A stretch of 64,000 nt of DNA, taken from NCBI GenBank assembly GCA_029775875.1, contig JARVKD010000002.1, positions 3,007 to 67,006 on the forward strand, written 5' to 3'. The notes under the pieces are model-generated. The model had not been told where the DNA came from. It saw nothing but the letters and a program-made list of their open reading frames with translations, and did no database searches. Below are positions 530 through 55,337 of this stretch, piece after piece. This DNA comes from Nitrososphaeria archaeon. GTDB taxonomy: Archaea > Thermoproteota > Nitrososphaeria > Nitrososphaerales > JACAEJ01. The position numbers were made by a program, and so were the translations under genes. Positions within the stretch are counted from its first letter, which is position 1. Every line of letters starts with the position of its first letter.

Positions 530-643
530 GCATAAATTTATGCCAATTATACATTCAGCAATTCTTCATCTCTTCTAAAACTAAGCCCAGCACTTTGATT
601 TAATCTTTCTCCCATTGGCAGCGATGTTGTATTTGATTTTATG

Positions 644-1280: not shown

Positions 1281-1367
1281 TGGCTCCTGTCATAAAGCTC
1301 GCTGACGGCCCTAGCAGATAAAAGATGAAGTATAGGGTTTACCCAGGCGTGCGACAGACAGGAGCTA
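1281..1367. ncRNA. Candidate structured RNA (long irregular GC-rich hairpin, family unknown)
   Basis: 11-bp terminal helix (tggctcctgtc / gacaggagcta), inner helices gctcgc/gcgtgc and ggcccta/tagggtt, and a GA-rich apical loop (agatgaag). It stands out as a GC-rich island in AT-rich intergenic DNA. No family recognised and the strand is uncertain. Confidence 0.3.
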
Positions 1368-1434
1368 CCAAAATTCATATCCCTTCCCTAAGGAATAGGA
1401 TTTGTTTATATCATGCAAAATCGAATAGATTCTG

Positions 1435-1974
1435 ATGAGTTCTTATTACGATGTATCTAGGTATCTTGATGTAAAATTAGAAAAGGTCTCTATGAGCAAA
1501 GAGCCAGAGCTAAGGCCGACGATATCCTCCCAAATAATGCTTCATAATAAATCAGACAGATTGGTAGAATCTGACAGCATCAAGTATGCGATTTACTTTA
1601 ATCTGCCAAAGGAAGATGGCAATTTAGAATTCAAGGTTGTAGCTCGTGGTTCTATTCTTACAAAATTCCTTATAGACGCTGGATCGAGCCTTCCCATTAC
1701 TCTAGAGGTTGAAATCCCTCACATAAGAGTACTTTATCTGAGCAAAATCATCCAATCATCGATAGAAGGCAAGTTAGAAATATATGCATTTTTTGACCAA
1801 ATTCCAGTTCCTTATCAACCTCCCTTTTCTAGAGATTACATCCTTACTCATGAGTACTTGCCAGACTTTCCTATCAGCGGAATGGTGTGTAAGTTTATTG
1901 AATTTAGAATCCCTATAGAAGAATGGAAAGTATTCGCAAAAAGAGTGGAGAATTTTTTCTTTAGCCTTAAGTAG
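1435..1974 (+). CDS. Hypothetical protein
   Basis: 179-aa ORF with no competing frame. No motif recognised. Confidence 0.5.
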   Translation: MSSYYDVSRYLDVKLEKVSMSKEPELRPTISSQIMLHNKSDRLVESDSIKYAIYFNLPKEDGNLEFKVVARGSILTKFLIDAGSSLPITLEVEIPHIRVLYLSKIIQSSIEGKLEIYAFFDQIPVPYQPPFSRDYILTHEYLPDFPISGMVCKFIEFRIPIEEWKVFAKRVENFFFSLK

Positions 1975-2039
1975 AAATAAGACAATACTTATATTCACAA
2001 TGAACACTATTATTCATTGCTATCATCAAGGTAAATGGT

Positions 2040-2456
2040 ATGATAGACTTTAAATCAAATCAAGATACTCTTCAAGAATTGATGCTATTCACGAAAAGAT
2101 TAAACGATGAATGTAAAAACGGTGCTTTAGTCGTGGTTGAGGGGCAGCGTGATGCAAAGGCCCTTGAATCGATAGGGTTTAATGGAGATCTGTTCTTGCT
2201 ATGTCATAATGAAAGCTTAGTAAAATTGGCCATTAAGGCTGAAAAGTACAAAAAGATAATTCTTCTTCTGGATTTGGATAAAAAAGGAAGAGCGTTAACA
2301 AAAAGGGCTGCCATGATCCTTCAAGAGAAGAGTAGAAAGATAGACCTATTCTTCAGAAGAGAATTGGCAAAAGCGAGTAAGGGAAAGATAAAGCATGTAG
2401 AAGAGTTGAGTCGATTTGGCGACTATCTTCAAAATTTAAATTATTTTAATACTTGA
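2040..2456 (+). CDS. Small Toprim-domain protein (UPF0292-like)
   Basis: 138 aa. VVVEGQRDAKALESIGF ... ILLLDLDKKGRAL fits the Toprim E...DxD pattern of small archaeal Toprim proteins. Confidence 0.65.
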   Translation: MIDFKSNQDTLQELMLFTKRLNDECKNGALVVVEGQRDAKALESIGFNGDLFLLCHNESLVKLAIKAEKYKKIILLLDLDKKGRALTKRAAMILQEKSRKIDLFFRRELAKASKGKIKHVEELSRFGDYLQNLNYFNT

Positions 2457-2540
2457 TTTTATTAACAAAATCGAGAATCCAAACTATTTAAAAAAGCAAA
2501 TCTTTTATTACAAAACAATTGGATAGATGGATCATTATAT

Positions 2541-4010
2541 GTGATTAAGATGAAGTTCTCATTCATAAACCCTGGAGCGAGTGAATCTTGGACTCATGTT
2601 ATTACTGCTCCAGCATCTTGGCCACCTTTAGGATTGTTATATATTGCTACTTTTTTAAAACAAAATGGTTTTGATGTTTCTGTTCTTGACGCTGCAAGTC
2701 AAACTTCTCTTCAAGATGCATTATCATGGGTTAAGAAAGAGGACCCAGACTTTCTAGGCTTTTCAACATTATCTAGCTCAGGAAGATCAGCTGCAATCAT
2801 AGCTGAGAAGGTTAAAGAAATCAATCCAAACATTAAAATCGCTTTTGGTAATTATCATGCTACCTTTAATGCTGAGAGAATTTTAAGGAAATATCCCTTC
2901 GTGGATTTGATAGTCAGAGATGAAGGAGAGTTTACATGCCTAGAAATAGCAAACTGCTTGGAAAAGGGAAAAGACATCAAAGATGTTAGAGGCATAGTTT
3001 TTAGAGAAGGAGATAGAATAGTCTTCACACCAGATAGGCCACTTATCAAAGAATTGGACAAAATTCCTTTTCCTGATAGAAGTCTGCTAAAGAAAGAATA
3101 CAGATCAACTCTAGCTGGATTAACTGTTGCTACGAAAAAGTTCACTTCTATGGTCTCTTCTCGTGGTTGCCCTTTCAATTGCACTTATTGTGCCTGTTCT
3201 CTATTTGCACGTCGAAGATGGAGGCCTAGGTCTCCAGAAAACATCTTGGAAGAGTTAGAGATGCTTTACCATCAAGGGTTTAGGCAAATAATATTCGTCG
3301 ATGACAACTTTGCCTTGAACCAAAAAAGAGTGATAGAATTATGCAATTTAATGAAGAAAAATAAGATCGATATGGATTGGGTCTGTGATGCCAGGGTTGA
3401 CTGCATATCCATGGATGCTTTAAGGGCTATGGCCAAGGCTGGATGTAGAATCATCTACTATGGCATGGAAAGCGCAAATCAAAGAATCCTCGATTTCTAC
3501 AAAAAGGGAATAGTACCATCACAATCTATAGCAGCCACCAAAGCTACGAGAAAGGCTGGCATTGATATCATCGTTGGTTCTTTCATAGTTGGGGCTCCAG
3601 ACGAGACTCGAGAAGAAATTCAAAATACCCTCAACTTTGCTCAAAAGTTGGATATCGATGTACCGATCTTTCATCCTTTAGAAATTCATCCTGGGACTCC
3701 TTTATGGGCAGATTTGGCATCAAAGGGGTTATTGAATGAGGATGAGCACTGGGAGAAAGGAGTCTATGCTCCAGAAATATCTCCTAAAGCCGTTCCTTTG
3801 AAAGAGATTTACAACATGATCTACTATGCATCTAAGAAGTTCTTGCTTCGATTAAGATACGTCAGTTTAAGCTTTATGAGGCTATTGAAAAGTCGCTATA
3901 AGCTTGGAATTGTGCATAATAATATAAGCAAATTTCTAAGACATAAATTCAGCCTTTCAGAAGCAATGGAAATTCCAGAAGGCTATAGAATAAAAAAGGC
4001 TACTCACTAA
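2541..4010 (+). CDS. B12-binding-domain radical SAM protein
   Basis: 489 aa. N-terminal Rossmann-like B12-binding region (LGLLYIATFLKQNGFDVSVLDA) followed by the radical SAM motif SSRGCPFNCTYCAC. The start may be the ATG at 2550. Confidence 0.8.
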   Translation: MIKMKFSFINPGASESWTHVITAPASWPPLGLLYIATFLKQNGFDVSVLDAASQTSLQDALSWVKKEDPDFLGFSTLSSSGRSAAIIAEKVKEINPNIKIAFGNYHATFNAERILRKYPFVDLIVRDEGEFTCLEIANCLEKGKDIKDVRGIVFREGDRIVFTPDRPLIKELDKIPFPDRSLLKKEYRSTLAGLTVATKKFTSMVSSRGCPFNCTYCACSLFARRRWRPRSPENILEELEMLYHQGFRQIIFVDDNFALNQKRVIELCNLMKKNKIDMDWVCDARVDCISMDALRAMAKAGCRIIYYGMESANQRILDFYKKGIVPSQSIAATKATRKAGIDIIVGSFIVGAPDETREEIQNTLNFAQKLDIDVPIFHPLEIHPGTPLWADLASKGLLNEDEHWEKGVYAPEISPKAVPLKEIYNMIYYASKKFLLRLRYVSLSFMRLLKSRYKLGIVHNNISKFLRHKFSLSEAMEIPEGYRIKKATH

Positions 4011-4050
4011 AGCTTTAAGAGAAATTATGAGAAAGAACTTTTAAATTCAT

Positions 4051-4677
4051 GTGAGTTTAAAAAATAGCGTAAAAAGTATTATGAGTGAACAGAAAGCAAA
4101 GAAGATCATAGAAGATGTAACTCTATACTTCGATGAGATGGCTAGAGCTCTAGAGAAGTCTATTATCGAAGAATATTGTTCTAAATGTCCAAAATCTAAG
4201 GGAAAAGAAGGCTGTGAGCTTCTCTCTCGTGAAACTGTTTTCGCACTATTCAATGGTATCTGGGATGGTTTAGTATCCTGGGCTTCGAATAGCTCATTAT
4301 CTTTAGAAGAATGGTGGCCGGCTTTGGTGTGTTTTGTCTGTCAGCTCACAGAGAAAAAGCCTATCATAAGGGCATCGAGTAAAGAGTGCATGAAACCTAC
4401 TGTAGAGGAAGGTGATCTAGTACTCATCAAAAGGTCCATCGATCCCCTTACTATAAATGTTGGCGATATAGCTGTATTGAGAGCGGGTCCAGGAGACTGT
4501 CATATCAGAAGGATAGTTGAGATAGTTAGGAAAGAAGGTTCGATCTATGTTAGAACGAAAGGCGACTTTGAACCAACCCCTGATGAGGGACTCACCTCAA
4601 CTGAAAGGATTTGTGGCATAGTCGTCCAGATCATTAAAAGAGACACAGAATTATGGAAAAAGTTGATGGGAAGATGA
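4051..4677 (+). CDS. Soluble signal-peptidase (S26B/S24)-like protein, Cys at the nucleophile position, Cys-rich N-domain (paralog 1)
   Basis: 208 aa. Box order KECMKPT / EEGDLVLIK / VGDIAVL / CHIRRIVEI / RTKGDFEPTPDE. The N-terminal half carries CSKCPKSKGKEGC and CFVC. No N-terminal TM helix. Confidence 0.55.
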   Translation: MSLKNSVKSIMSEQKAKKIIEDVTLYFDEMARALEKSIIEEYCSKCPKSKGKEGCELLSRETVFALFNGIWDGLVSWASNSSLSLEEWWPALVCFVCQLTEKKPIIRASSKECMKPTVEEGDLVLIKRSIDPLTINVGDIAVLRAGPGDCHIRRIVEIVRKEGSIYVRTKGDFEPTPDEGLTSTERICGIVVQIIKRDTELWKKLMGR

Positions 4678-4684
4678 TTTAAAA

Positions 4685-5323
4685 TTGCCTCAAGAGAATC
4701 AAAATCTAAGGGAAGCTGATGAAATACCAAGCGCAATCATGAAATACTTAGCAACCTGCCAAAGAGCCCTTGGCGATTTGTTAAATTCAATCCTAGGAAT
4801 CATCAGAGAAAATTGTGCTGACTGTGATATGAAGAAGGATTGTCCGCCATTTTTCATTTACGCTGAAGCTTACAGAGTCATGCTTATGTTTCTCCTAGAA
4901 TTCATTGCAAGACATGGCGTTGATGAAGAATTAGCAAAGGATGAAAAAGCCTTAGCGTTAATTAAGTGTGAAATGTGCAGACAAGTCACTGAAACGAATT
5001 CTTTCTTATTTGCCATGGAAAAGTGCATGGAGCCTTTGATCAACGAAGGTGACTTGCTGATCATAAAGCGAAAGTTACAGCCAGAAGAGTTGAAAGAGGG
5101 AGATATAATCGTTTACCCAAGTTTCAGATGGCTACAAGGCGGGAAAGTTCCTATATGTGTTGTCCATAAGATTACAAGAATCGAAGGAAATCGCTTCTTT
5201 CTGACAGATACCAGCGGTCATAAAGAGAGCGTCGAGAAACACCTTGTCTGTGGGAAGGTTGTTAAGACGATAGAAAAAGGAAGCAGTCTTTGGAAAGAGT
5301 TTTCACAGACAATTTCGATGTAA
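4685..5323 (+). CDS. Soluble signal-peptidase (S26B/S24)-like protein, Cys at the nucleophile position, Cys-rich N-domain (paralog 2)
   Basis: 212 aa and collinear with the upstream ORF: EKCMEPL / NEGDLLIIK / EGDIIVY / VVHKITRIEG, with a shared C-terminus (VCGKVVKTIEKGSSLWKEF vs ICGIVVQIIKRDTELWKKL). N-domain has CADCDMKKDC and CEMC. Confidence 0.55.
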   Translation: MPQENQNLREADEIPSAIMKYLATCQRALGDLLNSILGIIRENCADCDMKKDCPPFFIYAEAYRVMLMFLLEFIARHGVDEELAKDEKALALIKCEMCRQVTETNSFLFAMEKCMEPLINEGDLLIIKRKLQPEELKEGDIIVYPSFRWLQGGKVPICVVHKITRIEGNRFFLTDTSGHKESVEKHLVCGKVVKTIEKGSSLWKEFSQTISM

Positions 5324-5350
5324 TGATTGAGTTCTTTGGCATTTATAGTA

Positions 5351-5827
5351 TTAGACAAAGACCGACCTGATAAAGTCTCCAACAAAATTCGCTATAATTA
5401 CAACTATAATTGCAATTAACAAATGCTCTGTGATAACTTTCCAAGCTCTTGCCTTCTGCTCTTTTGCGAGATAGAAACTAAAGATTCCTAAAAGAGATAG
5501 CCCCCAAATAATGCTTACTATAACTGCAGTTGTCAGTGGAAATAGCAAGACAGGAACAATAAATGTAGTTGCGAAGATAAATTTAGTCAGAAAAGTGGAG
5601 ATCGTTGATTCCCATATTTCCCTTAACGTGTGCTTGCACTCTGATTCTTCAGATATATGAATTCCCAGTGCATCTGAAAATGCATCTGCTATAGCTATTA
5701 CTAATATTCCACCAATAACAGCAAGTTCTGAGCGGGTGCCAGAAGTCAGGCCTACCATTAATCCTAGAGTTGTAATTATCGCTGAGGTCAAACCGAAACT
5801 AAATCCAGTTTTTACTGAGTGTTTCAC
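5351..5827 (-). CDS. Small integral membrane protein, possibly VIT1/CCC1-family
   Basis: 158 aa with about 5 hydrophobic helices. AIADAFSDALGIHISEES resembles the VIT-family acidic loop. The assignment is tentative. Confidence 0.45.
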   Translation of the reverse strand: MKHSVKTGFSFGLTSAIITTLGLMVGLTSGTRSELAVIGGILVIAIADAFSDALGIHISEESECKHTLREIWESTISTFLTKFIFATTFIVPVLLFPLTTAVIVSIIWGLSLLGIFSFYLAKEQKARAWKVITEHLLIAIIVVIIANFVGDFIRSVFV

Positions 5828-5957
5828 TATAGCTCTATGCCTACAATCACCAATGTTGGAAGGGATATATATTTTTGCTTTCTCCTATGGAATCATCGTT
5901 AAAGCGCAAAGTTGAAAAGATCGTTCTAAAATCTTTTATATTGGACAGTAAAGTCTG

Positions 5958-6410
5958 GTGGTTAGATTGTCTAAATCAAAGTCTCCTAGAGGAGAAATGG
6001 CTGCTAGAAAATTGAGGAGGAAAAAGCAGAAGCTAAGATGGTCTGATAAGTACTATAAGCGTAGGCTATTGATGCTCGATAAGAAGGCAGACCCTCTTGA
6101 AGGTGCTCCTCAAGCCAGAGCCATAGTCTTGGAGAAGGTTGGAGTTGAATCAAAGCAGCCTAACTCTGCCATAAGAAAATGTGTTCGTGTTCAATTGGTG
6201 AAGAATGGCAAGCAGATAACAAGCTTCCTTCCAGGTGATGGTGCATTAAATTATGTGGATGAGCATGATGAAGTCGTAATTGAAGGGATAGGAGGCTCTA
6301 TGGGAAGGTCTATGGGAGATATACCTGGAGTAAGATGGAAAGTTTCTACAGTCAACGGAGTCTCCCTAAATATGCTCGTCTTGGGTAAAAAAGAAAAACC
6401 TAGGAGATGA
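5958..6410 (+). CDS. rps12: 30S ribosomal protein uS12
   Basis: [48 protein letters not shown] is the canonical S12 core. Confidence 0.95.
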
Positions 6411-6414
6411 GATC

Positions 6415-7011
6415 ATGGCTGAAGAGAAGCTATTACTATTCAGAAAATGGGATATGAGTGAAGTTAAGGTTAAGGACAAGGGCTTAGAGAGAGTTATCTC
6501 TCTTAAACCTATGATTATGCCAACATCAATGGGAAGGCATGAGCATCATAGATTTGCAAAGGCTGAAGTGAACGTGGTAGAGCGCCTCGTTAACAATCTG
6601 ATGCACTTCGGTAAAAAATATGCCAAGAATACAGGTAGGATGGGAGGAAAAAAGGCAAGAGCCATAAACATAGTCAAGACAGCCTTCGACATAATTCACT
6701 TAAAGACTGGCGGTAACCCTGTAGAGCATCTTATTCGTGCTATTGAAAATGCATCTCCCAACGAAGATACGACTAGGATAAGCTATGGTGGTGTAGTCTA
6801 TCATCTTTCAGTGGATATATCTCCCTTAAGAAGACTTGATCTGGCTTTAAGGTTCATTGCAGAAGGAGCAAGAGAGGCTAGCTTTTCTAGTCCAAAGACC
6901 ATAGAAGAAGCCTTGGCAGATGAGATAATAATGGCTGCAAATGGGGATGTAAACAGCTATGCAGTGAAGAAGAAGAACGAGCAAGAAAGAATAGCCATGG
7001 CATCAAGGTAA
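6415..7011 (+). CDS. rps7: 30S ribosomal protein uS7
   Basis: 198 aa directly downstream of uS12. It has an archaeal S7 pattern (VERLVNNLMHFGKK...ISYGGVVYHLSVDISPLRRLDLALRFI). Confidence 0.9.
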   Translation: MAEEKLLLFRKWDMSEVKVKDKGLERVISLKPMIMPTSMGRHEHHRFAKAEVNVVERLVNNLMHFGKKYAKNTGRMGGKKARAINIVKTAFDIIHLKTGGNPVEHLIRAIENASPNEDTTRISYGGVVYHLSVDISPLRRLDLALRFIAEGAREASFSSPKTIEEALADEIIMAANGDVNSYAVKKKNEQERIAMASR

Positions 7012-7278: not shown

Positions 7279-7906
7279 CTTCTCCCTCCTTTTGAATACT
7301 CTCTTCAGGCTTCTTTTCTATGATTTCAACTTCAGGAGGTATAGCATCCTTTAAGGCGATTCTTACTTTTATCCCATAGAGCCCCATCTTAAGCAGTACA
7401 TGCCCCGAAGCCTCTCTTACAGCCTTCAATGCAGGATCTCCACTCTTAGGAACTACCCCTGCTCTATACTTCTCATAATGTGATCTTTCACTTCTCAACT
7501 TCCCAGAAATTATTATCTCTGCACCCATGGCACCAGCGTTCATTATAGAATTCAAAGCCCAAAGGGCAGCTCTTCTAAAGGCTCCGCCTCTTACAATGTT
7601 CTGGGCTATTCTGTTGGCCATGACCATGGGGTTAAGCTCTGGGACTTCTACTTCTAAGACTGAGATTTGAGGGTTTGGCAAACCAAACTTTTTTTCTATC
7701 ATGGATGTAAGGTCTCTAATCCCCATGCCACGTCTTCCTATAACCAAGCCAGGTCTTGTTACAAAGATGGTTATTCTTGTCCCTATAGGTGTCTTAAAAA
7801 CGTCTACTCCTCCATATCCTGCATCAGCCAACTCCTTCTGTAGAAATTCATCAAGTTCAGCACTCTTTGCATAATTCTTCATAATATTCTTAATGGCTGA
7901 CATCAT
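7256..7906 (-). CDS. rps3: 30S ribosomal protein uS3
   Basis: 216 aa with a KH-domain S3 pattern (VTRPGLVIGRRGMGIRDL...GAEIIISGKL). Flanked by uL22 and uL29. Confidence 0.9.
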   Translation of the reverse strand: MMSAIKNIMKNYAKSAELDEFLQKELADAGYGGVDVFKTPIGTRITIFVTRPGLVIGRRGMGIRDLTSMIEKKFGLPNPQISVLEVEVPELNPMVMANRIAQNIVRGGAFRRAALWALNSIMNAGAMGAEIIISGKLRSERSHYEKYRAGVVPKSGDPALKAVREASGHVLLKMGLYGIKVRIALKDAIPPEVEIIEKKPEESIQKEGEGVAETKE

Positions 7907-8367
7907 GCAACCTCCTTTCCTACTATCTCTATGTGTACTAAAGTATTGAATTTTGGCGAAGAACGACCAAAAGCTCTAGGCGTGTATCTTTTAACCTTCA
8001 TGCCTTTCATGACTGCGGCGTGTACTATGACCATCTTCTCAGTATCCAGTCCTTTAAACTCCGCATTAGCCTCAAGATTCTTGATGACCTTAAGAATTTC
8101 TTGTGCAGCCTTTACTGGGTAACCTCCAGCATGGAATCTGAATTGAGAGCTTTTATGTGGTACTTCTTTCTTATACCTTCTAAAAGGCACTGCTTGCTTC
8201 TTGTTTATCACGTCTTCCAAGAACTTCTTAGCCTTGGATATATTCATGCCCTTTATAAGGGCACAGACTTCTCTAGCCGCCTTTGGGGAGACATCTACCT
8301 CTCTCCCACTCGCTCTGACTTGCGTAAGTGGATCGTAACCTATGAAGCTATATTCGAATTCGGGCAA
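7903..8367 (-). CDS. rpl22: 50S ribosomal protein uL22
   Basis: 154 aa. ASGREVDVSPKAAREVCALIKGMNISKAKKFLEDV...HIEIV matches archaeal L22. Confidence 0.9.
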   Translation of the reverse strand: MPEFEYSFIGYDPLTQVRASGREVDVSPKAAREVCALIKGMNISKAKKFLEDVINKKQAVPFRRYKKEVPHKSSQFRFHAGGYPVKAAQEILKVIKNLEANAEFKGLDTEKMVIVHAAVMKGMKVKRYTPRAFGRSSPKFNTLVHIEIVGKEVA

Positions 8368-21477: not shown

Positions 21478-22815
21478 GTGACTGGTTTAATAATTAATGT
21501 AATGGCAAGTGTTTCTGTTGGCATAGCCATAATGGCACCATTCTCGACCGTATTGCTTCTATCGAGAAGAATAGAAAGAATATCTGGAGTTAGATCATAT
21601 TGGCATTTATTCTTAATCTCCATCATGTTTTATGTAGCGTATGTTTTGGTAACATGGAGCGATCCTTTTGGTATTTTCTCATTAGAACCTCTTACATTAC
21701 TCTCTGGCACAGCATTACTCATGCTTAGCGCTCTTTCTGTTGCCCTTGGTATGATGGGCTTAATGGCTACTATTGGTTATAATACTTATAGGATATTTGT
21801 TGCCTTTACTTTTGTAGGTGTGGTAACACCTATCATATTGGGTCTGAGCTTAAACTATATTGCTACTTCTTCAATTCCACTTTCCATAGTGATTTTAACA
21901 TTATTAGAAGGCTTTCTTACGTATTGTTTCATCTCTCTCTCGTATTTTTTACTTTCAAGATTCGGATCGATTTTAGGTAAAGTAAGAATACCCTTTGCTC
22001 TAATAGTAAGCGCAGTTAGCTTAATTGCAGGTTTTGGTTTTCTATACTTCTTTGGAAGTTTGATCTTCGAATTTTCCCTCTTCAATCCTGATATAATAAT
22101 TGGGCTAGGGGCACCAGTATACGCAGTAGTAGGTTTAATGGCTCCATATGCCTCTTTTAGAATAGTTAAAGAGACTAAACCTTTACTCCCAATGCCCTTA
22201 GAAGCAAAGCTAGAGGCTGGGATTCCTGAGATAGACAATATGTTAAAAGGTGGCATTCCCCATCCTTGCTCACTATTGTTCTTAGGACCCGTAGGTAGTG
22301 GAAAGACGGAAATCTTTCTAAAGTTATCAAGTTATCGGCTTCAAAAAAATGATGCAATAATCTTTGTCTGCACCAATAACCTACCAGAGAATTATCGATT
22401 GATGATGGAGAATATAGGGTTTGATCCACAACCTTTTGAGGAAAGAAATTCACTAATATTCGTAGATGCTTATTCTAGCAAGTTTGGGATAGAAAGCAAA
22501 GAGAAGTATTGCACCTCAATAATACCTTACGATGTTAATGCAACAATTTCAAAAGCTATCGATGAAGCAAAAGGAATAAACAAGATTGTCATAGTTCATA
22601 GTCTGACGGACGTTTTGGACGAGTGTGGAACTAGGGAAGGATTAGTGTTCTTGAGAAGCTTGGTCGCCAGAACAAGAGAAGTGAAGGCAACTTTACTCTT
22701 AAGCCTAAACCCTCAAGCGTTTCCTCCAGCTGTATTGGCTCTTGCCCAAGAAGCTGTGGATGGTACCATAACCCTAAAGGCAAAGGAGAAAGCTGGTGTA
22801 AGATGGCACCTGTGA
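21478..22815 (+). CDS. Polytopic membrane domain fused to a KaiC/RecA-like ATPase domain
   Basis: 445 aa. About 230 aa of TM helices, then GIPEIDNMLKGGIPHPCSLLFLGPVGSGKTE (KaiC-type Walker A region). Confidence 0.65.
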   Translation: MTGLIINVMASVSVGIAIMAPFSTVLLLSRRIERISGVRSYWHLFLISIMFYVAYVLVTWSDPFGIFSLEPLTLLSGTALLMLSALSVALGMMGLMATIGYNTYRIFVAFTFVGVVTPIILGLSLNYIATSSIPLSIVILTLLEGFLTYCFISLSYFLLSRFGSILGKVRIPFALIVSAVSLIAGFGFLYFFGSLIFEFSLFNPDIIIGLGAPVYAVVGLMAPYASFRIVKETKPLLPMPLEAKLEAGIPEIDNMLKGGIPHPCSLLFLGPVGSGKTEIFLKLSSYRLQKNDAIIFVCTNNLPENYRLMMENIGFDPQPFEERNSLIFVDAYSSKFGIESKEKYCTSIIPYDVNATISKAIDEAKGINKIVIVHSLTDVLDECGTREGLVFLRSLVARTREVKATLLLSLNPQAFPPAVLALAQEAVDGTITLKAKEKAGVRWHL

Positions 22816-23335: not shown

Positions 23336-23746
23336 ATGCTTATATATAGTCTATATAACATGCGCCTTGTAAATATTATGAATTCATCGCCTAATGAATG
23401 GAGGGTGATAAAGAAGGCTAGGGGAAAGTATGTGAAAGGTTTACTGGACCTCTTAATCTTGACAATCTTGAGAGAAAGAGAGATGAGCGGCTATGATCTT
23501 ATTAGTTACATTCATAGAACCTTTGAAGTTTTGCTCAGCCCTGGCACTTTGTATCCCATGCTGAACAATCTTGAGCATATGGGGTTGATAGAAGGTATAG
23601 AACAAGGCAGAAAGAAGCTTTACAGGTTAACAAGTAAGGGAGAAGTCTTGTGCCGATCTCTCTCTTCAGAATATTTGAATATCATATCAAGAACTGCCTT
23701 CTTAAAAACCAATGAAGAAGCCAAAACTTTCACGCCTGAGGAGTGA
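23336..23746 (+). CDS. PadR-family transcriptional regulator
   Basis: LLDLLILTILREREMSGYDLISYI...SPGTLYPMLNNLEHMGLIEG...KLYRLTSKG is the PadR wHTH pattern. The true start may be internal (MNSSPNEW). Confidence 0.8.
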   Translation: MLIYSLYNMRLVNIMNSSPNEWRVIKKARGKYVKGLLDLLILTILREREMSGYDLISYIHRTFEVLLSPGTLYPMLNNLEHMGLIEGIEQGRKKLYRLTSKGEVLCRSLSSEYLNIISRTAFLKTNEEAKTFTPEE

Positions 23747-25489: not shown

Positions 25490-25723
25490 ATGAGGGCGTA
25501 TATTCTGATAAGGGCCAAACCAGGAACCACTGAGGATATTATTAAAGCCATAAAGAATTTGAAGGGAATCAAGGTAGTCTTGGCTGATTCTATTTATGGT
25601 AGGTTCGATGCTATAGTGGTGATCGAAGCTCGAGATATAAAAGCACTAAGTGAGATGGTCTACAAGATGATCGGCGTGCATCCAGAAATAATCCATACCG
25701 AAACTCTGATAAGTCTTTTCTAA
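25490..25723 (+). CDS. Stand-alone Lrp/AsnC-type ligand-binding (RAM) domain protein
   Basis: 77 aa. AYILIRAKPGTTEDIIKAIKNLKGI...GRFDAIVVIEARDIKALSEMV has the RAM fold pattern and no HTH. Confidence 0.7.
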   Translation: MRAYILIRAKPGTTEDIIKAIKNLKGIKVVLADSIYGRFDAIVVIEARDIKALSEMVYKMIGVHPEIIHTETLISLF

Positions 25724-25737
25724 TTTGGTGATAAAAA

Positions 25738-25980
25738 TTGCCTATAAGGGCCTTCGTCTTAGTTACAACAAAGCCAGGCACTTCTGAAGATATAGTCAGA
25801 GCTAGAAAGATAAGGGGAGTAAAGATCGCCAATTCTGTCTTTGGAAGGTTCGATGCTGTAATAGTAGTGGAGGCAAAGGATATGAACGAATTGTCGAAGA
25901 TAGTCTATGAGATGATAGAACAGATGCCGAACATAAGGAGCACTGAAACTCTTATTACTCTGTTCTATCCACCAGAATGA
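25738..25980 (+). CDS. Stand-alone Lrp/AsnC-type ligand-binding (RAM) domain protein (paralog)
   Basis: 80 aa. AFVLVTTKPGTSEDIVRARKIRGV...GRFDAVIVVEAKDMNELSKIV is a paralog of the upstream ORF. Confidence 0.7.
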   Translation: MPIRAFVLVTTKPGTSEDIVRARKIRGVKIANSVFGRFDAVIVVEAKDMNELSKIVYEMIEQMPNIRSTETLITLFYPPE

Positions 25981-28416: not shown

Positions 28417-28510
28417 GATGTTACACCACTTACAATATAAGAGCTGAATTTTTTAGTATTTAAGAATAGCGTTACTTTGGAGCGTCTATATACAACATGA
28501 CTCTTGAAGA

Positions 28511-29257
28511 TCACACTTCAGAAGGGATGGGAATCGCTTTTTCTTCCAAAATACTCCACAACTTTTTTGGTGGATTTAATTCAGATATGAGCATAGGTCT
28601 TCCGTCAAATTTTGTGCATGGATATTCCCCTTTTCTTTTTAATGGTATTCTCTCAATCTCCTCTTTAGTTAAATAACCCACTATAGCGCCTTTTCCTATG
28701 ATTCCATTATCTTTCGCTTCAATTTCAAGTATTTTAACCCCGACTGCATAATCGCATTTTTTCCACTTTCTTTCGGGTATGATGAAGTTTTTTACTATAT
28801 TTCTCCCTTCGCTAGGTGGTTTATAGTAATCTGGAGGGATATGCACAATCTCTAAGGTTATTATCCCTCCATCCTTAGTTCGAATGGCGAAATCAAAAGA
28901 CCCTTTGCATGGTTTCTCGAAGGACTGTCCTTCATAATAATTGTAGTGTAAAATATGTATATTTCTCAACTTATCTTTAACAACATTCCAAGCAATAAAT
29001 CTATAAATGTAGTCTTCCTTTATCTCCTCCGAGGTTCTCTCGCTCTTAATCTCTTGCAGTCTTTTAAATTCTTCAAATTTAGTGAATGCGTAGAAATTAA
29101 CCCATTCATGATCATAAAGTTCTATTTCAAAGTATTCTGCATTTTCGTAACATTGCCAACAGAACTCAAACTCTTTCATTGATCTTATAATATCTGTGAA
29201 TATTGCTCGGCCTTCTAATTGGAGACCTCTAAAACGTTCTTCCAAATCAAACTTCAC
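28511..29257 (-). CDS. Hypothetical protein, possible PD-(D/E)xK-like fold
   Basis: 248 aa. Candidate motif D169(YAVGVKILEI)E180-A-K182, plus an earlier GSFDFAI...ITLEIVH. Downstream of the KaiC-like ATPase on the same strand, with a 52-nt gap. Confidence 0.5.
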   Translation of the reverse strand: MKFDLEERFRGLQLEGRAIFTDIIRSMKEFEFCWQCYENAEYFEIELYDHEWVNFYAFTKFEEFKRLQEIKSERTSEEIKEDYIYRFIAWNVVKDKLRNIHILHYNYYEGQSFEKPCKGSFDFAIRTKDGGIITLEIVHIPPDYYKPPSEGRNIVKNFIIPERKWKKCDYAVGVKILEIEAKDNGIIGKGAIVGYLTKEEIERIPLKRKGEYPCTKFDGRPMLISELNPPKKLWSILEEKAIPIPSEV

Positions 29258-29309
29258 TTTATGTTATCTTTACTCCCATTTGAAAACCCCACAAAAAAGA
29301 AGTTCTTGT

Positions 29310-30722
29310 TCATAAGACAGGTATCAATTTCACTTCTTCACTAGTAACTGAGATGTTGTATAATGGCGTGTCTGGTCTAACTCCATAGATAAATATAGCA
29401 CCATTAATGTTCTTTAAAACGAAATGCTTATCACACATTTGTGCGATTTGGTCGACAGCCCTCTGTCCCCTCTTAGTTATAGAGATATAAACATCCCCCC
29501 ACTCACTTATTGATGAGAGGTCCATTGACACTTTAAGCAATGTCGCATTATATCCTAGTGAATGCTCAATAAAATCTGCAGACATTATGTGGCAAACAGG
29601 TTGTTTTGCTCTTCCCACCAATTTAGATCTTGCTGCAAACCAAGACTCAAGAGTCTTATCCAAGTTCTTTAAATGAACAAAGAATCTATTTTCTGGAATA
29701 GGTCGTTCGTATATTGCCTTTTGAGCTATCATTGCATTATTCACATTCTCTCCAACATATTCCTGAAAACTTTTGAGATGTTCCTCAATGCTTAATCCTT
29801 CTAAAGGGGTTATTACTAATCCTCTTCCCAACAACAAAGTGTTGATCATTAAAGGGAAGATTAAGAAGTGGAAATGTTCGTTGCCAACACCATGCTCTAA
29901 AGTGAACATAGTCGATGTTCCTAACTTATAACCACCGCCCAAAAGCTTGTCGAGGTCTGGAATACCACTGGATATTTTGTCTTTTTCAGGGTCAGGAATT
30001 ATATTAAATTTCTTAAGATATATTGGCTTAAGAGGTGGGAAGTATTTAAAATGCCCTTCATATAAAGTAAAAGCGTAATTCTTCTTTTTCCTCGTGATGC
30101 CTCGAAGCTTGTTAATCGTAATTTCTCTTGCCGATCTCCTCTCCAACAATCCACTCCAAACCCTTCCATCTTTTGCTTCACCAAATATATCTATATCAGA
30201 GAGAGTTACCATCCCATCGACTAAATAGTCGAGAGTAGATAGATCAGGATTCTCGTTAACAAGAATGATATTAGCACTCTTCTTGCTAATCAAAGTCTCT
30301 AAAAGGCTTAACATTTTCTCTGCCTCTTCGGGTCCCGCTTCTCTTACAATACCTTCCCAACTATCTATTATCATCAAAGGGTTGTTTAATCTTGCGATAA
30401 AATCATATACGCGCTCAAATGGCAATGAATACATTTTCATCTTTGTATCTATTATTGTAATGCCCTTTTTATTCGCTAATAAAACACTCTCTGTCTTGAT
30501 TACATCCTTTAACCAAGGAAAAGAAGCAAACAACCTCTCTGGCGTTATTCTTGTACTCACATAGACTCCATTTCTACTTTCTCTGAAGTGATTCAACAAC
30601 TCGAGACTTAACATCGTCTTTCCAGTACCAGGTTTACCCTTAATTAAAAGAATGTTATTTCCTTGGGATAAGAAATTTATCAGCTCTTTTGGAATATTAC
30701 TTTCCGACAATTTTCTATCCAT
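29310..30722 (-). CDS. Double-domain KaiC/RecA-like ATPase (second domain lacks a P-loop)
   Basis: Domain 1 has LLIKGKPGTGKTMLSLELL (Walker A) and LMIIDSWEG (Walker B). Domain 2 has GIPDLDKLLGGGYKLGTSTMFTLEHGVGNEH, a KaiC-type lead-in whose GxxGxGKT is replaced. Confidence 0.7.
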   Translation of the reverse strand: MDRKLSESNIPKELINFLSQGNNILLIKGKPGTGKTMLSLELLNHFRESRNGVYVSTRITPERLFASFPWLKDVIKTESVLLANKKGITIIDTKMKMYSLPFERVYDFIARLNNPLMIIDSWEGIVREAGPEEAEKMLSLLETLISKKSANIILVNENPDLSTLDYLVDGMVTLSDIDIFGEAKDGRVWSGLLERRSAREITINKLRGITRKKKNYAFTLYEGHFKYFPPLKPIYLKKFNIIPDPEKDKISSGIPDLDKLLGGGYKLGTSTMFTLEHGVGNEHFHFLIFPLMINTLLLGRGLVITPLEGLSIEEHLKSFQEYVGENVNNAMIAQKAIYERPIPENRFFVHLKNLDKTLESWFAARSKLVGRAKQPVCHIMSADFIEHSLGYNATLLKVSMDLSSISEWGDVYISITKRGQRAVDQIAQMCDKHFVLKNINGAIFIYGVRPDTPLYNISVTSEEVKLIPVL

Positions 30723-30939
30723 AATAACGAAAAATTATATAAAATTTATGGTGTATAGTTCTTTAATCTCGATGAATTTTTCAGCGTCAATTTTTCTTTG
30801 AATAAAACTATAAGCTCGATCATATTAAGCTTTAAACAGACTTTTGCATTTTTTAGAATTAACGTTTTAGAAGAGTGATTACTTTTCATCTAATTGTACT
30901 AAACTCTTTAAATAATCGTTATTTATCTCTCATGATAGC

Positions 30940-33699
30940 ATGCCCCTAAAAGATGATGAGTTCGATATTGATTTCATGAGGAAGAATGATTTTGTCAGAA
31001 AGAAGTGTAGAATTTGTGGTTCCTTTTTCTGGACTCAAAAGCATGATCTTGATGTTTGTATGGAGTCTCCTTGCGTAGAATATGAGTTCATAGGCAATTC
31101 TCCAACAAAGGTAAAGGCTGATGTGAATGAGATGAGAAGAATCTTCCTCAAGTTCTTTGAAGATAATGCCCATGCCGTGATAAATCCATATCCTGTTGTA
31201 GCAAGATGGAGAGACGATCTTCTTGTAACTATAGCAAGCATAGTGGACTTTCAGCCTTATGTTACGAATGGTGAGATACCACCGCCTGCAAATCCATTAG
31301 TGATTAGCCAGCCATGTTTGAGGTTTGAAGATATTGATAACGTCGGTCCGACCTTTGGGAGACATCTGACCATATTTGAAATGGGAGGTGCTCATGCCTT
31401 CAACTATCCTGATAGGTTCATCTACTGGAAGGACGATACGATAAGGTATCACCATGAGTTGCTGACAGAAAGGCTAGGAGTGCCCAGCGATCTAGTAACT
31501 TATAAGGAGCATTTCTGGTCTGGAGGAGGAAATGCTGGACCAGACGTTGAAGCCAACGTTATGGGATTAGAAATTTCAACATTAGTCTTCATGAGCTATA
31601 GATTAGAAAATGGAAACCTTGTCCCGACCCCTGTCAGGACTGTGGATACAGGTTATGGTATAGAAAGATGGGCTTGGTTAACCATGGGCACTCCTACAGC
31701 TTTTCATGCTGTCTTTGGTAAGATTTTTGATAAGACTTTGGATCTGGTTGGCATAAAAATAGATGATAAGGTCCTTTTAGAAGCTGGAAAGATTTCAGGT
31801 TCTTTCTCTATTGTAGATAGCAATAGATCGAGGATGGCAAGAGAGATCGTGGCAAAGAGGCTAGGAATGAAATACGATGAATTTGAAGATGCCATAAAGC
31901 CCTTCGAAAATATTGCAGCCATTCTTGATCATACAAAGGCTCTTGTTTTCATGCTCGCTGAAGGTGTAGTCCCTTCCAATGTAAAAGCCGGTTATCTTGT
32001 GAGAATGCTTGCTAGGCGCTCCTATAGATTACTCTCTTTGTATGGTGCTCAGAGTAAACTCTTTGACATTTTAGAGATGCAGATAAAACATTGGTCTCCA
32101 CAATTTCCTCATATCAAAGATATGAGAGATGAGATAATAAAACTGGCGGACGTAGAGATAGAAAAATATGAAAAAACGTTGGAAAGAGAGTATGGTGAAG
32201 CAAGAAAGAAGATCGAAGGGTTAAAGGCAAAGGGCAAATCATCAATTCCTGTTGAGCTTTTACAAGAATTCTATGAATCTCACGGTCTTCACCCTCAGCA
32301 AGTATCTGAAATATCACAGAAGATAGGAATGAAGGTGGAAATACCATTGGATTTCTTCTCTAACCTTGTTAAGAAGAAGTCAGAGATTGAAGTGCAAAAA
32401 CCCCAGGAGGAGCAGGCTCTTTTGAGCAAATTTGAAGATCTACCTGCTACTGAGCCAATTTATTACATGGATTCAAAGCAATTAGAGTTTGATGCCAAGG
32501 TCTTAAGAGTCGATGGTGATTTCTTAATCCTTGATAGGACTGCTTTTTATCCTGAAGGGGGAGGTCAGTTAGGAGACCAGGGCTTGATTGTATGGGATAA
32601 GGAAGAATCTCAAGTTATAGATACCATCAAAGTCGGTTCAGTGATTCTTCATAAGATAAAAGGAAGATTGCCACCAAAGGATGCTATAGTTAAAGGCATA
32701 GTGGATAGTCAAAGGAGGAGAGCCTTGATGATTCATCATACATCAACTCACATCTTAAACGGTGCTGCTCGTCATGTTTTAGGGGAGCATGTCTGGCAGG
32801 CAGGTGCTTTGAAGGATGTAGATAGGAGCAGGCTTGACATAACCCATTATGCTCACTTGACAAGAGAAGAAATCATTGAGATAGAGAATAGGGCTAACAT
32901 GGTTGTCCGCATGAACATACCAGTTGAAGTTCTAAAACTTCAGAGAAATGATGCTGAAAAGAGGTATGGCTTTCGCTTGTACCAAGGAGGGGTTGTACCA
33001 GGAAAGGAGATCAGAGTGATAAAGATAGGGGACTGGGATATCGAGGCTTGTGGTGGTGTTCATTGTTCAAGGACTGGGGATGTAGGTCTGATAAAGATAA
33101 TAAGGGTTGAAAGGGTGCAAGATGGTGTTGAGAGGTTTGAGTTCGTTGCTGGAGAGCCTGCCCTAAAATTCTTCCAGCTTCAAGAAGATGTATTGTCAAA
33201 AATATCTCAAGTAGTGGGGGCTCAGCAAGAGAAACTCGTAGATGCCATCAATAGGCTAGCATTAGATCGTAGTGAACTGATTAAAAAGCAGAAAGTCATG
33301 TTTAAAAGATTGTCAGAACTTTCAAAGGACAGAATTATAGAGAAAGCCACTAAGATTTCTAGTATTAATGTTTATTTCGAAGTTGATAGTGAATTAGGAG
33401 AAGACTTTCATATAATGCTCGGCGAGAAGGTTATAGAGCAAAATCCGTCTTTAGTCTACTGCGCAATAGCTTTAGAAAACAAAGTTGCAAGGGTTATAGT
33501 GTTCTGTGGGAAAGATGCTAGAGCAAGAGGTGTGAAAGCAAAAGAGATAACTCGGAACATATCTCAGATCATGGGAGGATCAGGAGGAGGGGATGAAAGG
33601 TTTGGAAGAGGTGGTGGTCCCCTCATCGATAAGGTTAGAGAGGTTAAGTCAACTTTATACTCACAGATAGAAAATATGATAAAAGAAAGGGAGCAATAG
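30940..33699 (+). CDS. alaS: Alanine--tRNA ligase
   Basis: 919 aa with the archaeal AlaRS layout: N-terminal zinc motif (CRICGSFFWT), editing-domain HHTSTHILNGAARHVLG...GGVHC, and a C-terminal DHHA1-like region. Confidence 0.95.
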   Translation: MPLKDDEFDIDFMRKNDFVRKKCRICGSFFWTQKHDLDVCMESPCVEYEFIGNSPTKVKADVNEMRRIFLKFFEDNAHAVINPYPVVARWRDDLLVTIASIVDFQPYVTNGEIPPPANPLVISQPCLRFEDIDNVGPTFGRHLTIFEMGGAHAFNYPDRFIYWKDDTIRYHHELLTERLGVPSDLVTYKEHFWSGGGNAGPDVEANVMGLEISTLVFMSYRLENGNLVPTPVRTVDTGYGIERWAWLTMGTPTAFHAVFGKIFDKTLDLVGIKIDDKVLLEAGKISGSFSIVDSNRSRMAREIVAKRLGMKYDEFEDAIKPFENIAAILDHTKALVFMLAEGVVPSNVKAGYLVRMLARRSYRLLSLYGAQSKLFDILEMQIKHWSPQFPHIKDMRDEIIKLADVEIEKYEKTLEREYGEARKKIEGLKAKGKSSIPVELLQEFYESHGLHPQQVSEISQKIGMKVEIPLDFFSNLVKKKSEIEVQKPQEEQALLSKFEDLPATEPIYYMDSKQLEFDAKVLRVDGDFLILDRTAFYPEGGGQLGDQGLIVWDKEESQVIDTIKVGSVILHKIKGRLPPKDAIVKGIVDSQRRRALMIHHTSTHILNGAARHVLGEHVWQAGALKDVDRSRLDITHYAHLTREEIIEIENRANMVVRMNIPVEVLKLQRNDAEKRYGFRLYQGGVVPGKEIRVIKIGDWDIEACGGVHCSRTGDVGLIKIIRVERVQDGVERFEFVAGEPALKFFQLQEDVLSKISQVVGAQQEKLVDAINRLALDRSELIKKQKVMFKRLSELSKDRIIEKATKISSINVYFEVDSELGEDFHIMLGEKVIEQNPSLVYCAIALENKVARVIVFCGKDARARGVKAKEITRNISQIMGGSGGGDERFGRGGGPLIDKVREVKSTLYSQIENMIKEREQ

Positions 33700-37094: not shown

Positions 37095-37862
37095 TTACTT
37101 TGTCTCTTTGCTACTGTTTTGGGGTTTAAGTAGTTTGAGTAATTCCTCATCTTCCTTCCTCTTTTTCTGGCGAGTCCGTTCAATCTCTATATCCAACTTT
37201 TTGAAGATTTCAGCCTCTTTCTGTGATAAAACAGCCCAGGGCTTCTCGATTCGCCATGTGATCTTAAAACATAAGGCTTCTTCAGGAAACGCACCTTGAT
37301 CATAGAGAGTCCAATGCATGAATTGTGTTGGCTCTTCCTGATAGCAACACCTTATAGCCTCTCTTATCACTTCTGGTCTTCTTGCCAATATAACATCTTC
37401 AAGCAAGGCAAGATTTACTAGAGTTATCTGCTTCCTAAAGCGTTTTATAGCCTCTAGAGGTATGTTGTATAGGTATGGTGTAGGCGCTTCAGCCCCTATG
37501 ATCCGGCGTTTTTCATCAACACCATTATCCACTAGAGCCTGTAGAGTCTGTCCAGGTTGATGCCCAGAAGACTCTACTCCACAGACAATTAGGTAACGAA
37601 TGTTCGGATTCGCTACAATATTGCATATAATCTTCTCAATTCCTACGTTCTCAGTCTGAAGGTATCCTGCTAGAGCAGCACCAGATTCTATGCTTGTCTT
37701 CACCAACTCTTGAAGATACGATGGAATCTTATCGTAGAAAGTATGAAGAAGAACACAGACCGCAACTGGAGAAAGATCGTTTCCTCTAAGGTAACTGCCA
37801 TCTTCAGTAGGATATTCGGGAGGAGGCTTCACCTTCAAGATTTTTCTATCTGTTTCAGGCAA
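37095..37862 (-). CDS. MtrA-like corrinoid-binding protein (soluble, no C-terminal TM helix)
   Basis: SPVAVCVL...LQTENVGIEKIICNIVANPNIRYLIVCGVESSGHQPGQTLQALVDNGVD...EAIKRFRKQITLV is collinear with MtrA, including the His ligand region (SGH). The C-terminus is a charged coiled-coil tail. Confidence 0.75.
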   Translation of the reverse strand: MPETDRKILKVKPPPEYPTEDGSYLRGNDLSPVAVCVLLHTFYDKIPSYLQELVKTSIESGAALAGYLQTENVGIEKIICNIVANPNIRYLIVCGVESSGHQPGQTLQALVDNGVDEKRRIIGAEAPTPYLYNIPLEAIKRFRKQITLVNLALLEDVILARRPEVIREAIRCCYQEEPTQFMHWTLYDQGAFPEEALCFKITWRIEKPWAVLSQKEAEIFKKLDIEIERTRQKKRKEDEELLKLLKPQNSSKETK

Positions 37863-43418: not shown

Positions 43419-43511
43419 ACGAACATCAATGAAATTACGAATATTCTATAATATTTCTTTTTAATTCTATAGGAAAAATTTTAATAAGCAAATAAGCGGC
43501 TTTAAAACTGT

Positions 43512-43606
43512 GCCGAGGTAGCTCAGCCTGGGAGAGCATCCGACTCGTTTATTTGAGGGTGAAGCTGAAGACCGGACTGTCGCAGGTTCAAGTCCTGCCC
43601 TCGGCA
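43512..43606 (+). tRNA. tRNA-Phe(GAA) with a 21-nt intron at non-canonical position 30/31
   Basis: GCCGAGG/CCTCGGC acceptor, A73, GCTC-AGCCTGGGA-GAGC D arm, GCAGG-TTCAAGT-CCTGC T arm. Removing 43543-43563 yields TCCGG-CTGAAGA-CCGGA, a perfect anticodon arm. Confidence 0.75.
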
Positions 43607-43780
43607 TAAAGTTCTCTTCTATGTAGTTTTCCATTTGGCAATTTTCGCCAGAGCATACTGGGCATGATGATTCTTGATGAAGGCGCTCTAACTTTTGCCA
43701 ATATTACCTGCTTTGCATCTATTAATAAAGGGCAAGTTGTAGAGTTACGAATCTAGAGTGATCTCTAGGGTAATTCTACG

Positions 43781-55083: not shown

Positions 55084-55181
55084 GAAGTTCGAATATAAGA
55101 CTTACTGGCTTTTTTGGTCTTAACATAAAGTTTATAGATGCTTATCTTACGCCAAAATCTTATTGAACAAAAACTCTCAGA

Positions 55182-55274
55182 GCCGGGGTGGCCGAGTGGT
55201 TAGGCGGTGGGCTGCAGACAACTTGATGCAAAGCAGAGACCCGCTTTATGCAGGTTCAAATCCTGCCCCCGGCT
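55182..55274 (+). tRNA. tRNA-Cys(GCA) with a 21-nt intron at 37/38
   Basis: GCCGGGG/CCCCGGC acceptor, U73 discriminator, GTGGG-CTGCAG[55218-55238]A-CCCGC, GCAGG-TTCAAAT-CCTGC. Loop CUGC can pair with intron GCAG, which is BHB-like. Confidence 0.85.
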
Positions 55275-55337
55275 TTTATGCTAAAATAATATTTCCTTTA
55301 CAAATATGATGAATTAAAGGGTAATACCGCTCTTAAA

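Follow-up and report, generated by a model that had tools for sequence, protein, structure and literature searches.

A GvpD-family ATPase and a PD-(D/E)xK-fold protein occupy a strain-variable alaS–P1 interval in a Nitrososphaerales archaeon

Two adjacent genes in the alaS–P1 interval

The stretch analyzed here (the window; 64,000 nucleotides (nt) of contig JARVKD010000002.1 from a Nitrososphaeria archaeon of the order Nitrososphaerales) carries two adjacent genes between alaS and the gene for ribosomal stalk protein P1. One encodes an ATPase of 470 amino acids (aa), and the other, 52 nt downstream on the same strand, encodes a 248-aa protein with a GTG start codon, here called p248. A preliminary description of the sequence had proposed that they form an ATPase-sensor and nuclease-effector pair acting in defence or stress response. 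We conclude that the alaS–P1 interval is a strain-variable slot and that the ATPase and p248 are independent occupants of it. Both open reading frames (ORFs) lie on the minus strand where they had been placed, all quoted peptide strings were located, and alaS is divergently oriented, as described, across a 217-nt intergenic region (30723-30939). P1 had been described as convergent with p248. It is co-directional with and downstream of p248, since it too is on the minus strand, and it is P0 that converges on P1 (Table 1). The 57 nt upstream of P1 (28417-28473) are conserved, with the alignments to loci L005, L006 and L012 resuming at 28473, and by inspection a TTATAT element lies ~25 nt 5' of the P1 ATG. 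The G+C contents of the ATPase gene (0.366) and p248 (0.351) are slightly below the window mean of 0.394 and below the 0.41-0.42 of alaS and P1.

The slot was compared across relatives by tblastn and blastn, most comparison loci being metagenome-assembled genomes (MAGs) or metagenome contigs. Its content differs among close relatives, which bears out the earlier expectation of variable-island behavior. With the alaS of the window as reference, the order ATPase–p248 recurs in L009, a contig that starts inside the ATPase gene, carries no alaS and has a P0 that is 96% identical. A Kamchatka MAG (L011 and L012; alaS 96.7% identical) has the reverse order, namely a small ORF, p248, 600 nt and the ATPase, and the arrangement p248–600 nt–ATPase–P1 is contained in the single contig L012. 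A supposed DDE-transposase remnant in this 600-nt gap was unsupported, having no Pfam match. The ATPase is absent from L001 (alaS 96.7%), which has p248 behind a remnant of the small ORF, and from L019 (alaS 86%), which has p248. Conversely, L005 (alaS 93.9%) and L006 (alaS 84.7%) have the ATPase without p248. L004, whose upstream region is not visible, has the small ORF followed by p248, and L007 encodes an ATPase (73% identical) at another site without p248. The ATPase is thus adjacent in three of eight p248 loci of the chromosomal clade, to which the window copy belongs, and in two different orders, and p248 is present in three of nine ATPase loci. Distant members of the two families did not co-occur in the loci examined. 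Linkage in other genomes had been named beforehand as the test of the proposed pair, and the genes are unlinked there. Close relatives can have either gene alone in this slot, and one genome has the two in inverted order, so the inference of a functional pair is unsupported.

The p248 cassette is replaced by 75 nt in L005 and by ~24 nt in L006, with clean boundaries. In L001, 210 unrelated nt stand in place of the ATPase cassette. The spacer between the two genes begins with a T-run directly after the ATPase stop codon, and window 29260-29314 shares ~80% identity with the sequence preceding the small ORF in L011 and L001. The spacer therefore appears to retain the promoter and start region of this ORF, which other genomes have ahead of p248. 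Given the T-run and this retained region, both judged by inspection, the ATPase and p248 are probably separate transcription units.

Both genes are under purifying selection that is weaker than that on their housekeeping neighbors: the ratio of nonsynonymous to synonymous substitution rates (dN/dS) is 0.18-0.24 for p248 and 0.14-0.18 for the ATPase, compared with 0.08-0.11 for alaS and 0.09-0.13 for P0. Loci that share 95-96.5% identity in P0 have ATPases that are 79-84% identical, so that the ATPase diverges out of step with its flanks. In the comparison with L009, the part of the ATPase gene encoding the P-loop domain (window 30134-30580, L009 8-450) is 71-84% identical at the nucleotide level and 70% identical at the amino acid level over residues 48-200. 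Identity rises to 93-99% in the remainder of the gene and in all flanks. The L009 N-terminal domain is equally distant from every other allele. This mosaic points to recombination at the slot or to a chimeric contig.

Table 1. Features of the alaS–P1 interval in the window and of related loci.
Feature	Coordinates	Strand	Basis or remark
GvpD-family double-domain KaiC-like ATPase, 470 aa	29310-30722	-	ORF, Pfam and AlphaFold2 model
ATPase N-terminal RecA/KaiC-like domain, residues 1-235	30018-30722	-	Walker motifs, conservation
Walker A GKPGTGKT, residues 29-36	30615-30638	-	ATPase N-domain
Walker B LMIIDSWEG, residues 116-124	30351-30377	-	ATPase N-domain
KLRG motif	30099-30116	-	ATPase N-domain
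ATPase C-terminal degenerate KaiC-like domain, residues 236-470	29313-30017	-	Lead-in intact, P-loop replaced
KaiC-type lead-in GIPDLDKLLGGGYKLG, residues 253-268	29919-29966	-	ATPase C-domain
TLEHGVGNEH at P-loop position, residues 274-283	29874-29903	-	ATPase C-domain
ATPase/p248 spacer	29258-29309	-	T-run and putative retained small-ORF promoter/start region
p248, 248-aa PD-(D/E)xK-fold protein, GTG start	28511-29257	-	ORF; chromosomal clade of a mobile-element gene family
p248 nuclease-type signature core: FDFAI (residues 121-125, D122), TLEIVH (residues 134-139, E136, V138)	28841-28897	-	Alignments
p248 presence/absence cassette	28474-29309	-	Flanks align on both sides in L005 and L006
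ATPase presence/absence cassette	29258-30899	-	Alignment with L001 resumes at p248 start and window 30900
Ribosomal stalk protein P1	28093-28416	-	Pfam Ribosomal_60s, 1.6e-13
P0	27205-28071	+	Converges on P1
alaS	30940-33699	+	Divergent from ATPase gene
L020 (JACGUJ010000243), ATPase locus	536-5374		ATPase divergent from alaS, PadR between
L021 (Methanolobus sp. WCC4, CP150629), ATPase locus	1204-5341		alaS, 22 nt, ATPase (tandem), two receiver proteins
Small Cys-rich ORF, L004	81-275		
Small Cys-rich ORF, L008	1483-1755		
Small Cys-rich ORF, L011	7738-7953		
Small Cys-rich ORF, L002	7707-7976		
Small Cys-rich ORF, L001	~7895-8014		Remnant

The ATPase and its partners

The ATPase matches three Pfam families above their gathering cut-offs, GvpD_P-loop (5.3e-19; 69.3 bits, cut-off 24), KaiC (1.7e-15) and GvpD_bR2 (2e-07; 31.2 bits, cut-off 27.9), the last over profile positions 149-243 of 254 only, i.e., about the last 95. 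Its NCBIfam matches (KaiC, ArlH and RadB) are all sub-threshold. The preliminary label "KaiC-like" is thus correct, if less specific than the best match to GvpD_P-loop combined with GvpD_bR2. The 164 homologues found come from Nitrososphaerales, Methanosarcinaceae, Syntropharchaeia, Bathyarchaeia, Asgard and other lineages, and many are named "GvpD P-loop domain-containing" or "KaiC/GvpD/RAD55 family" (NCBI PGAP names on close homologues).

An AlphaFold2 model and a conservation analysis were built on 35 homologues. The model (predicted local distance difference test score (pLDDT) 85.9, predicted template modelling score 0.85) aligns in Foldseek with full-length KaiC chains (E 1.5e-21) over ~490 columns that span both halves, and because of this match we assign two tandem RecA-like domains to the protein, as had been read from the sequence. 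In an hhalign comparison of the N-terminal half with the C-terminal half, the P-loop positions fall opposite each other, as do those of Walker B, although the match is weak (E 0.0015, probability 17%). The first domain is intact, as described: both Walker motifs are present, and G29, G32-K35, D120, E157, R199 and K205 are invariant in the 35 homologues, with R207 conserved in at least 90%. In the second domain, the lead-in residues S251, G253, D258 and G264 are likewise invariant, and the P-loop is replaced. The family consensus here is GVG in place of GxxGxGKT, with no Lys-Thr, so the replacement that had been noted in the window is a family-wide feature.

Full-length KaiC and the archaeal double-domain KaiC-like ATPases share with this protein the two tandem RecA-like domains, the GIPxLDxLLGGG lead-in and the KLRG motif. 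The second domain can be likened to the inactivated "iKaiC" domains described by Makarova, Galperin and Koonin. KaiC differs in that its CII domain has a Walker A motif at the place where the ATPase has GVG and no P-loop, and the predicted domain orientation of the model differs as well (global TM score ~0.37). GvpD (PF07088 and PF20440), the haloarchaeal gas-vesicle repressor, likewise has a P-loop N-terminal domain followed by a C-terminal region matching GvpD_bR2, and it depends on its Walker motif to reduce the level of GvpE, the activator that is its partner (PMC4390858). The window protein differs from GvpD in its partial bR2 match, its length of 470 aa and its host, which belongs to the Nitrososphaerales and is not a haloarchaeon. 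No GvpA-like sequence was detected in the window (GvpA probe, E ≥ 0.75), and no gas-vesicle families are listed in the annotated neighborhoods of ATPase relatives. We conclude that the ATPase belongs to the GvpD family, that its second KaiC domain is inactivated, and that it is an ordinary member of a known but poorly understood family of regulatory ATPases.

Relatives of the ATPase occur beside genes for signaling proteins. In L020, which has a 42%-identical homologue in the same slot, the order is alaS, a PadR regulator, the ATPase, a PAS-rich protein, a receiver protein and P1. In L021, the homologue follows alaS in tandem and precedes two receiver proteins (Table 1), and in an Asgard genome it is part of a paralogue cluster with an AsnC-type regulator. 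Receiver and PAS proteins beside the ATPase relatives are a trait shared with other KaiC-like ATPases, which have been described as signaling components that associate with receiver domains, together with the concept of the inactivated KaiC domain (PMC5847659), and the PadR, PAS and receiver neighbors fit this picture, as well as the example of GvpD, the only member of its family to have been studied. Pairing of KaiC-like ATPases with a range of partners has also been proposed (Makarova et al. 2017, as cited in PMC5847659). Adjacency of the ATPase and alaS was seen in two phyla and is absent in the Asgard paralogue cluster and L007. It may represent a conserved neighborhood among the few genomes compared, and a literature search found no published association of alaS with KaiC.

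The window encodes a second KaiC-like ATPase (21478-22815, plus strand; 445 aa) with a KaiC domain confined to residues 246-440. Together with a gene for a PadR-family regulator (23336-23746, plus strand), it lies ~6 kb from the ATPase/p248 pair. L004 has a KaiC ATPase and a MEDS-domain protein at the matching place.

The p248 family

The preliminary description had assigned p248 to no recognisable family, and indeed it has no match in Pfam, NCBIfam, PADLOC or PHROGs. A word-indexed search returned five close homologues only, all in Nitrososphaerales MAGs, and an exhaustive profile search found ten relatives among 1.84 billion cluster representatives. A scan of viral contigs with the distant sub-family gave no match. 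Ubiquitin and FACT matches, the sole returns of a profile search of PDB sequences, were dismissed as spurious. The family alignment comprises 20 sequences, 13 of them distant members and seven from the chromosomal clade.

The distant members have a conserved helix Glu (GE), followed by PFDFAI and then TLEIK (D-x13-E-x-K), with the catalytic Asp of the E...D...ExK signature present in all 13. As this signature is canonical, the earlier call of a PD-(D/E)xK fold was right for the family, on the strength of a motif that had been given second place, the D...E pair FDFAI...TLEIVH (D122, E136). The motif that had been put first, D169-x10-E180-A-K182 (DYAVGVKILEIEAK, residues 169-182), did not hold up: E180 is replaced by K or G in close homologues, and both E180 and K182 vary in distant ones. 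Its D169 is invariant, as is K175, which had not been named. Across all 20 sequences, D122, E136, D169, K175 and G194 are unchanged.

The chromosomal clade has departed from the signature at two catalytic positions. The helix Glu, present in 13 of 13 distant members, is W or L in all seven (W90 in the window), and the ExK Lys, present in 12 of 13 distant members, is Val in all seven (V138 in the window). V138 is assigned to the lysine position because the homologue P0133 (FEIKSVPPD) bridges a 9-residue insertion in the clade. The window copy therefore lacks the full helix Glu...Asp...(D/E)-x-Lys signature and has W90, D122 and E136-I-V138, with K146 and K156 invariant within the clade. Judged by these residues, it is probably a domesticated, non-catalytic derivative.

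The AlphaFold2 model of p248 has a pLDDT of 75.7, with a shallow multiple sequence alignment of 13 sequences, and orders its elements as a helix (76-99) followed by strands at 104-106, 123-127, 132-140 and 157-161. When searched against BFVD, it matched the predicted structures of 20 phage proteins at E ≤ 1e-3 (best 7.6e-9, TM score 0.74 normalized by target length). Some of these small proteins are annotated as restriction endonuclease, PD(D/E)XK or NO VEIN C-terminal, and six of the 13 family members have weak NOV_C (PF13020) matches (best E 0.014). The predicted fold evidence is convergent, short of decisive. NOV_C and the small phage proteins named restriction endonucleases are the nearest named members of the PD-(D/E)xK superfamily, with which distant p248 members share the helix Glu, the β-strand Asp and the ExK motif. 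The family differs from the superfamily in an extra N-terminal helical region of ~70 residues, a C-terminal extension and its own invariant D169-x5-K175 and GY motifs, and the window clade differs further in W90 and V138. We conclude that p248 belongs to a new, very small family with the PD-(D/E)xK fold.

The most consistent chromosomal partner of p248 is a 64-90-aa Cys-rich ORF (CFPKCEW...CAGCRRQ; Table 1), the small ORF mentioned above. It has no Pfam match and overlaps the p248 start, which suggests that the two are translationally coupled. The small ORF has been deleted from the window and L009, leaving only its putative promoter and ATG region (window 29260-29314), and is truncated in L001. 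In every chromosomal context seen, p248 is directly upstream of P1. This includes a relocated, decayed segmental duplicate (L002 7463-9195, L003, and L008/L010 1193-2911) that adjoins an aspartokinase-like gene and contains a 5' remnant of alaS (aa 4-38), the small ORF, p248 and a P1 remnant, with no ATPase. The duplicate p248 is intact in L008 and frameshifted, lying in three frames, in L002/L003.

The distant p248-like genes adjoin a tyrosine integrase in six of six loci (L013-L018), and the integrases are mutually homologous. A weak tblastn match of this upstream gene of ~295 aa to P0 was rejected in favor of the integrase assignment. The ATPase is absent from all six loci. L014 is a 5,051-bp element between perfect 45-nt direct repeats derived from tRNA-Pro(CGG) (coordinates 1358-6453). 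Besides the integrase and the p248-like gene, it has genes for a protein-primed PolB and a Zn-ribbon protein. The L016 element, of 3,729 bp, lies between perfect 59-nt repeats in tRNA-Ser(GCT) (coordinates 65-3852). In both, the left repeat and the integrase ORF begin at the same base, and the first 15-20 codons of the ORF therefore consist of attachment (att)/tRNA sequence. A second pair of 51-nt imperfect direct repeats in L014 (3072-3122 and 6006-6056) brackets the PolB and Zn-ribbon genes, which look as if they formed a module nested within the element.

These elements resemble the cryptic integrated elements of Thaumarchaeota, which are small, bear integrases and can carry a PD-(D/E)xK restriction endonuclease as cargo (Krupovic et al. 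2019, PMC6563490). L014 and L016 are likewise small, encode a tyrosine integrase and sit in the 3' parts of tRNA genes, and L014 has the protein-primed PolB, although their att repeats (45 and 59 nt) are longer than the thaumarchaeal median of 17 bp (PMC6563490). The p248 gene of the window differs in lacking an integrase, att repeats and a neighboring tRNA gene: the window encodes no integrase homologue, no direct repeat of more than 16 nt flanks the locus, and no tRNA gene lies closer than 13 kb.

Interpretation of the locus and its surroundings

The reading we favor, and consider fairly probable, is that two functionally independent genes share the slot, a GvpD-type ATPase and a domesticated, probably non-catalytic p248 with a nuclease fold of mobile-element origin. 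The N-terminal domain of the ATPase has the full nucleotide-binding set, and the C-terminal domain is a pseudo-ATPase that kept its fold and lost its P-loop. By analogy with haloarchaeal GvpD and with the proposal of KaiC-like hubs, the protein most likely oligomerizes, and ATP binding or hydrolysis in the N-terminal domain most likely engages a partner regulator and changes that partner's fate. Such partners are probably signaling or transcription proteins encoded elsewhere. p248 would descend from a PD-(D/E)xK-type nuclease gene located beside the tyrosine integrase of small integrating elements. A copy would have become chromosomal in a Nitrososphaerales lineage, usually coupled with the small Cys-rich ORF upstream of P1, and there have lost the helix Glu and the ExK Lys and kept D122, E136, D169 and K175 under purifying selection. 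Since these two residues are lost, the others are kept and selection persists, p248 is most likely a nucleic-acid-binding or otherwise non-canonical protein and not a standard Mg-dependent endonuclease. The adjacency of the two genes would stem from gain, loss and rearrangement of cassettes at the slot and not from a shared mechanism.

Several points weigh against this reading. The genes are adjacent in three related loci, in two orders, which could reflect selection for proximity. Most comparison loci come from MAGs or metagenomes, the L009 contig begins within the ATPase gene and the Kamchatka MAG is interrupted within p248, so that mixed populations may account for some arrangements. The loss of catalysis in p248 is deduced from two substitutions. 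In some known PD-(D/E)xK enzymes, catalytic residues have been relocated or substituted, and the clade-invariant K146 and K156 or the family-invariant K175 might compensate for the residues lost. Moreover, Foldseek found no significant match for the p248 model in the PDB (best E 0.12), although PD-(D/E)xK enzymes dominate the top of the list.

An alternative idea is that p248 is an active, solitary nuclease with a variant site formed by D122, E136, D169 and K175, restriction-like or directed against mobile elements or involved in repair, and independent of the ATPase. The invariance of these residues and of G194 across both clades, the purifying selection, the mobile-element origin with variable location, and the fold match to phage proteins named restriction endonucleases would all suit such an enzyme. 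We nonetheless regard it as unlikely, since every member of the chromosomal clade has W or L for the helix Glu and Val for the ExK Lys, no methyltransferase or other partner was found, no defence or PHROG family is matched, and one lineage (L002/L003) has a frameshifted copy. This frameshifted copy would also suit the view that p248 has lost all function and is what remains of an old mobile-element insertion, decaying slowly beside P1. Neither an integrase nor an att site remains in the window, the catalytic residues have been lost, and the small partner ORF has been lost from the window and L009 and shortened in L001. We consider this view very improbable, because full-length ORFs 66-93% identical to the window copy are intact in at least six loci, with dN/dS of 0.18-0.24 at dS up to ~1. 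Given this purifying selection, which differs from neutral decay, p248 is not a dead relic.

Selection on both genes is likewise compatible with a functional module, put together recently in this lineage from parts that already existed, in which the KaiC-like ATPase is the sensor and regulates p248 as its nuclease-fold effector. The window, L009 and L012 have the genes side by side in the same orientation, both genes evolve faster than their flanks and are slightly low in G+C, and pairing of KaiC-like ATPases with a range of partners has, as cited above, been proposed. This module appears distinctly improbable to us, as relatives that are just as close have one gene or the other alone in the slot, the order of the two varies, a T-run and an apparently retained foreign promoter region separate the genes, and distant members of the two families are never together in the loci examined. 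In addition, p248 lacks two catalytic residues and PADLOC gives no match. The defence role proposed for the pair finds no support, as neither protein matches a known defence system: p248 has no match among the PADLOC-DB 2.0 defence models, and the ATPase has weak matches only, within its N-terminal P-loop part (AbiO 8.9e-06, residues 10-111, and others weaker).

We further considered, and hold to be improbable, a joint proposal in which p248 was exapted to a host role tied to P1 and the ATPase is an ancient signaling hub linked to alaS. The chromosomal p248 clade may be an exapted mobile-element nuclease fold that performs a host role with its small Cys-rich partner, and where the ATPase is present, p248 might be a client of it. 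The alaS-linked ATPase, for its part, might link receiver-domain or PadR regulators to the state of aminoacylation or translation.

Under the favored reading of independent slot occupants, a false lead is removed, as the juxtaposition of a KaiC-like ATPase and a nuclease-like ORF in a single genome is not in itself a defence module. A previously unannotated family of 248-aa ORFans gains a fold and an origin as the integrase-adjacent gene of small integrating archaeal elements, and p248 would be a clean case of domestication, with its active site eroded under continued purifying selection. The alaS–P1 interval of this Nitrososphaerales group emerges as a recombination-prone slot for signaling genes, and the linkage of alaS with a GvpD-like ATPase across phyla can now be tested.

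The genes surrounding the slot have features of their own. The usual archaeal stalk arrangement is a co-directional L11-L1-L10-L12 cluster. In the window, P1 is inverted relative to L11-L1-P0 (26063-28416), and P0 on the plus strand and P1 on the minus strand converge with a 21-nt gap. The inversion is also found in L004, L005, L006, L009, L012, L019 and L020, which are all of the relatives examined and include the one with the 42%-identical ATPase. Between NusG/Spt5 and L11, two tandem, stand-alone AsnC/RAM ligand-binding-domain genes (25490-25723 and 25738-25980, plus strand; 77 and 80 aa) have been inserted, and they are conserved in L004, L005 and L006.

ARAGORN reported two "tRNA-???" genes (43511-43607 and 55181-55275, plus strand; 95-97 nt) with four-base anticodons, which are probably intron-containing archaeal tRNAs mis-parsed under bacterial settings. 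Finally, the window encodes an MtrA-like protein (37095-37862, minus strand; Pfam MtrA 1.6e-41) beside an ArsR regulator and downstream of leuS. The gene is also present in L001 (828-1592) and represents a stand-alone homologue of methanogen MtrA in a non-methanogen of the Nitrososphaerales.

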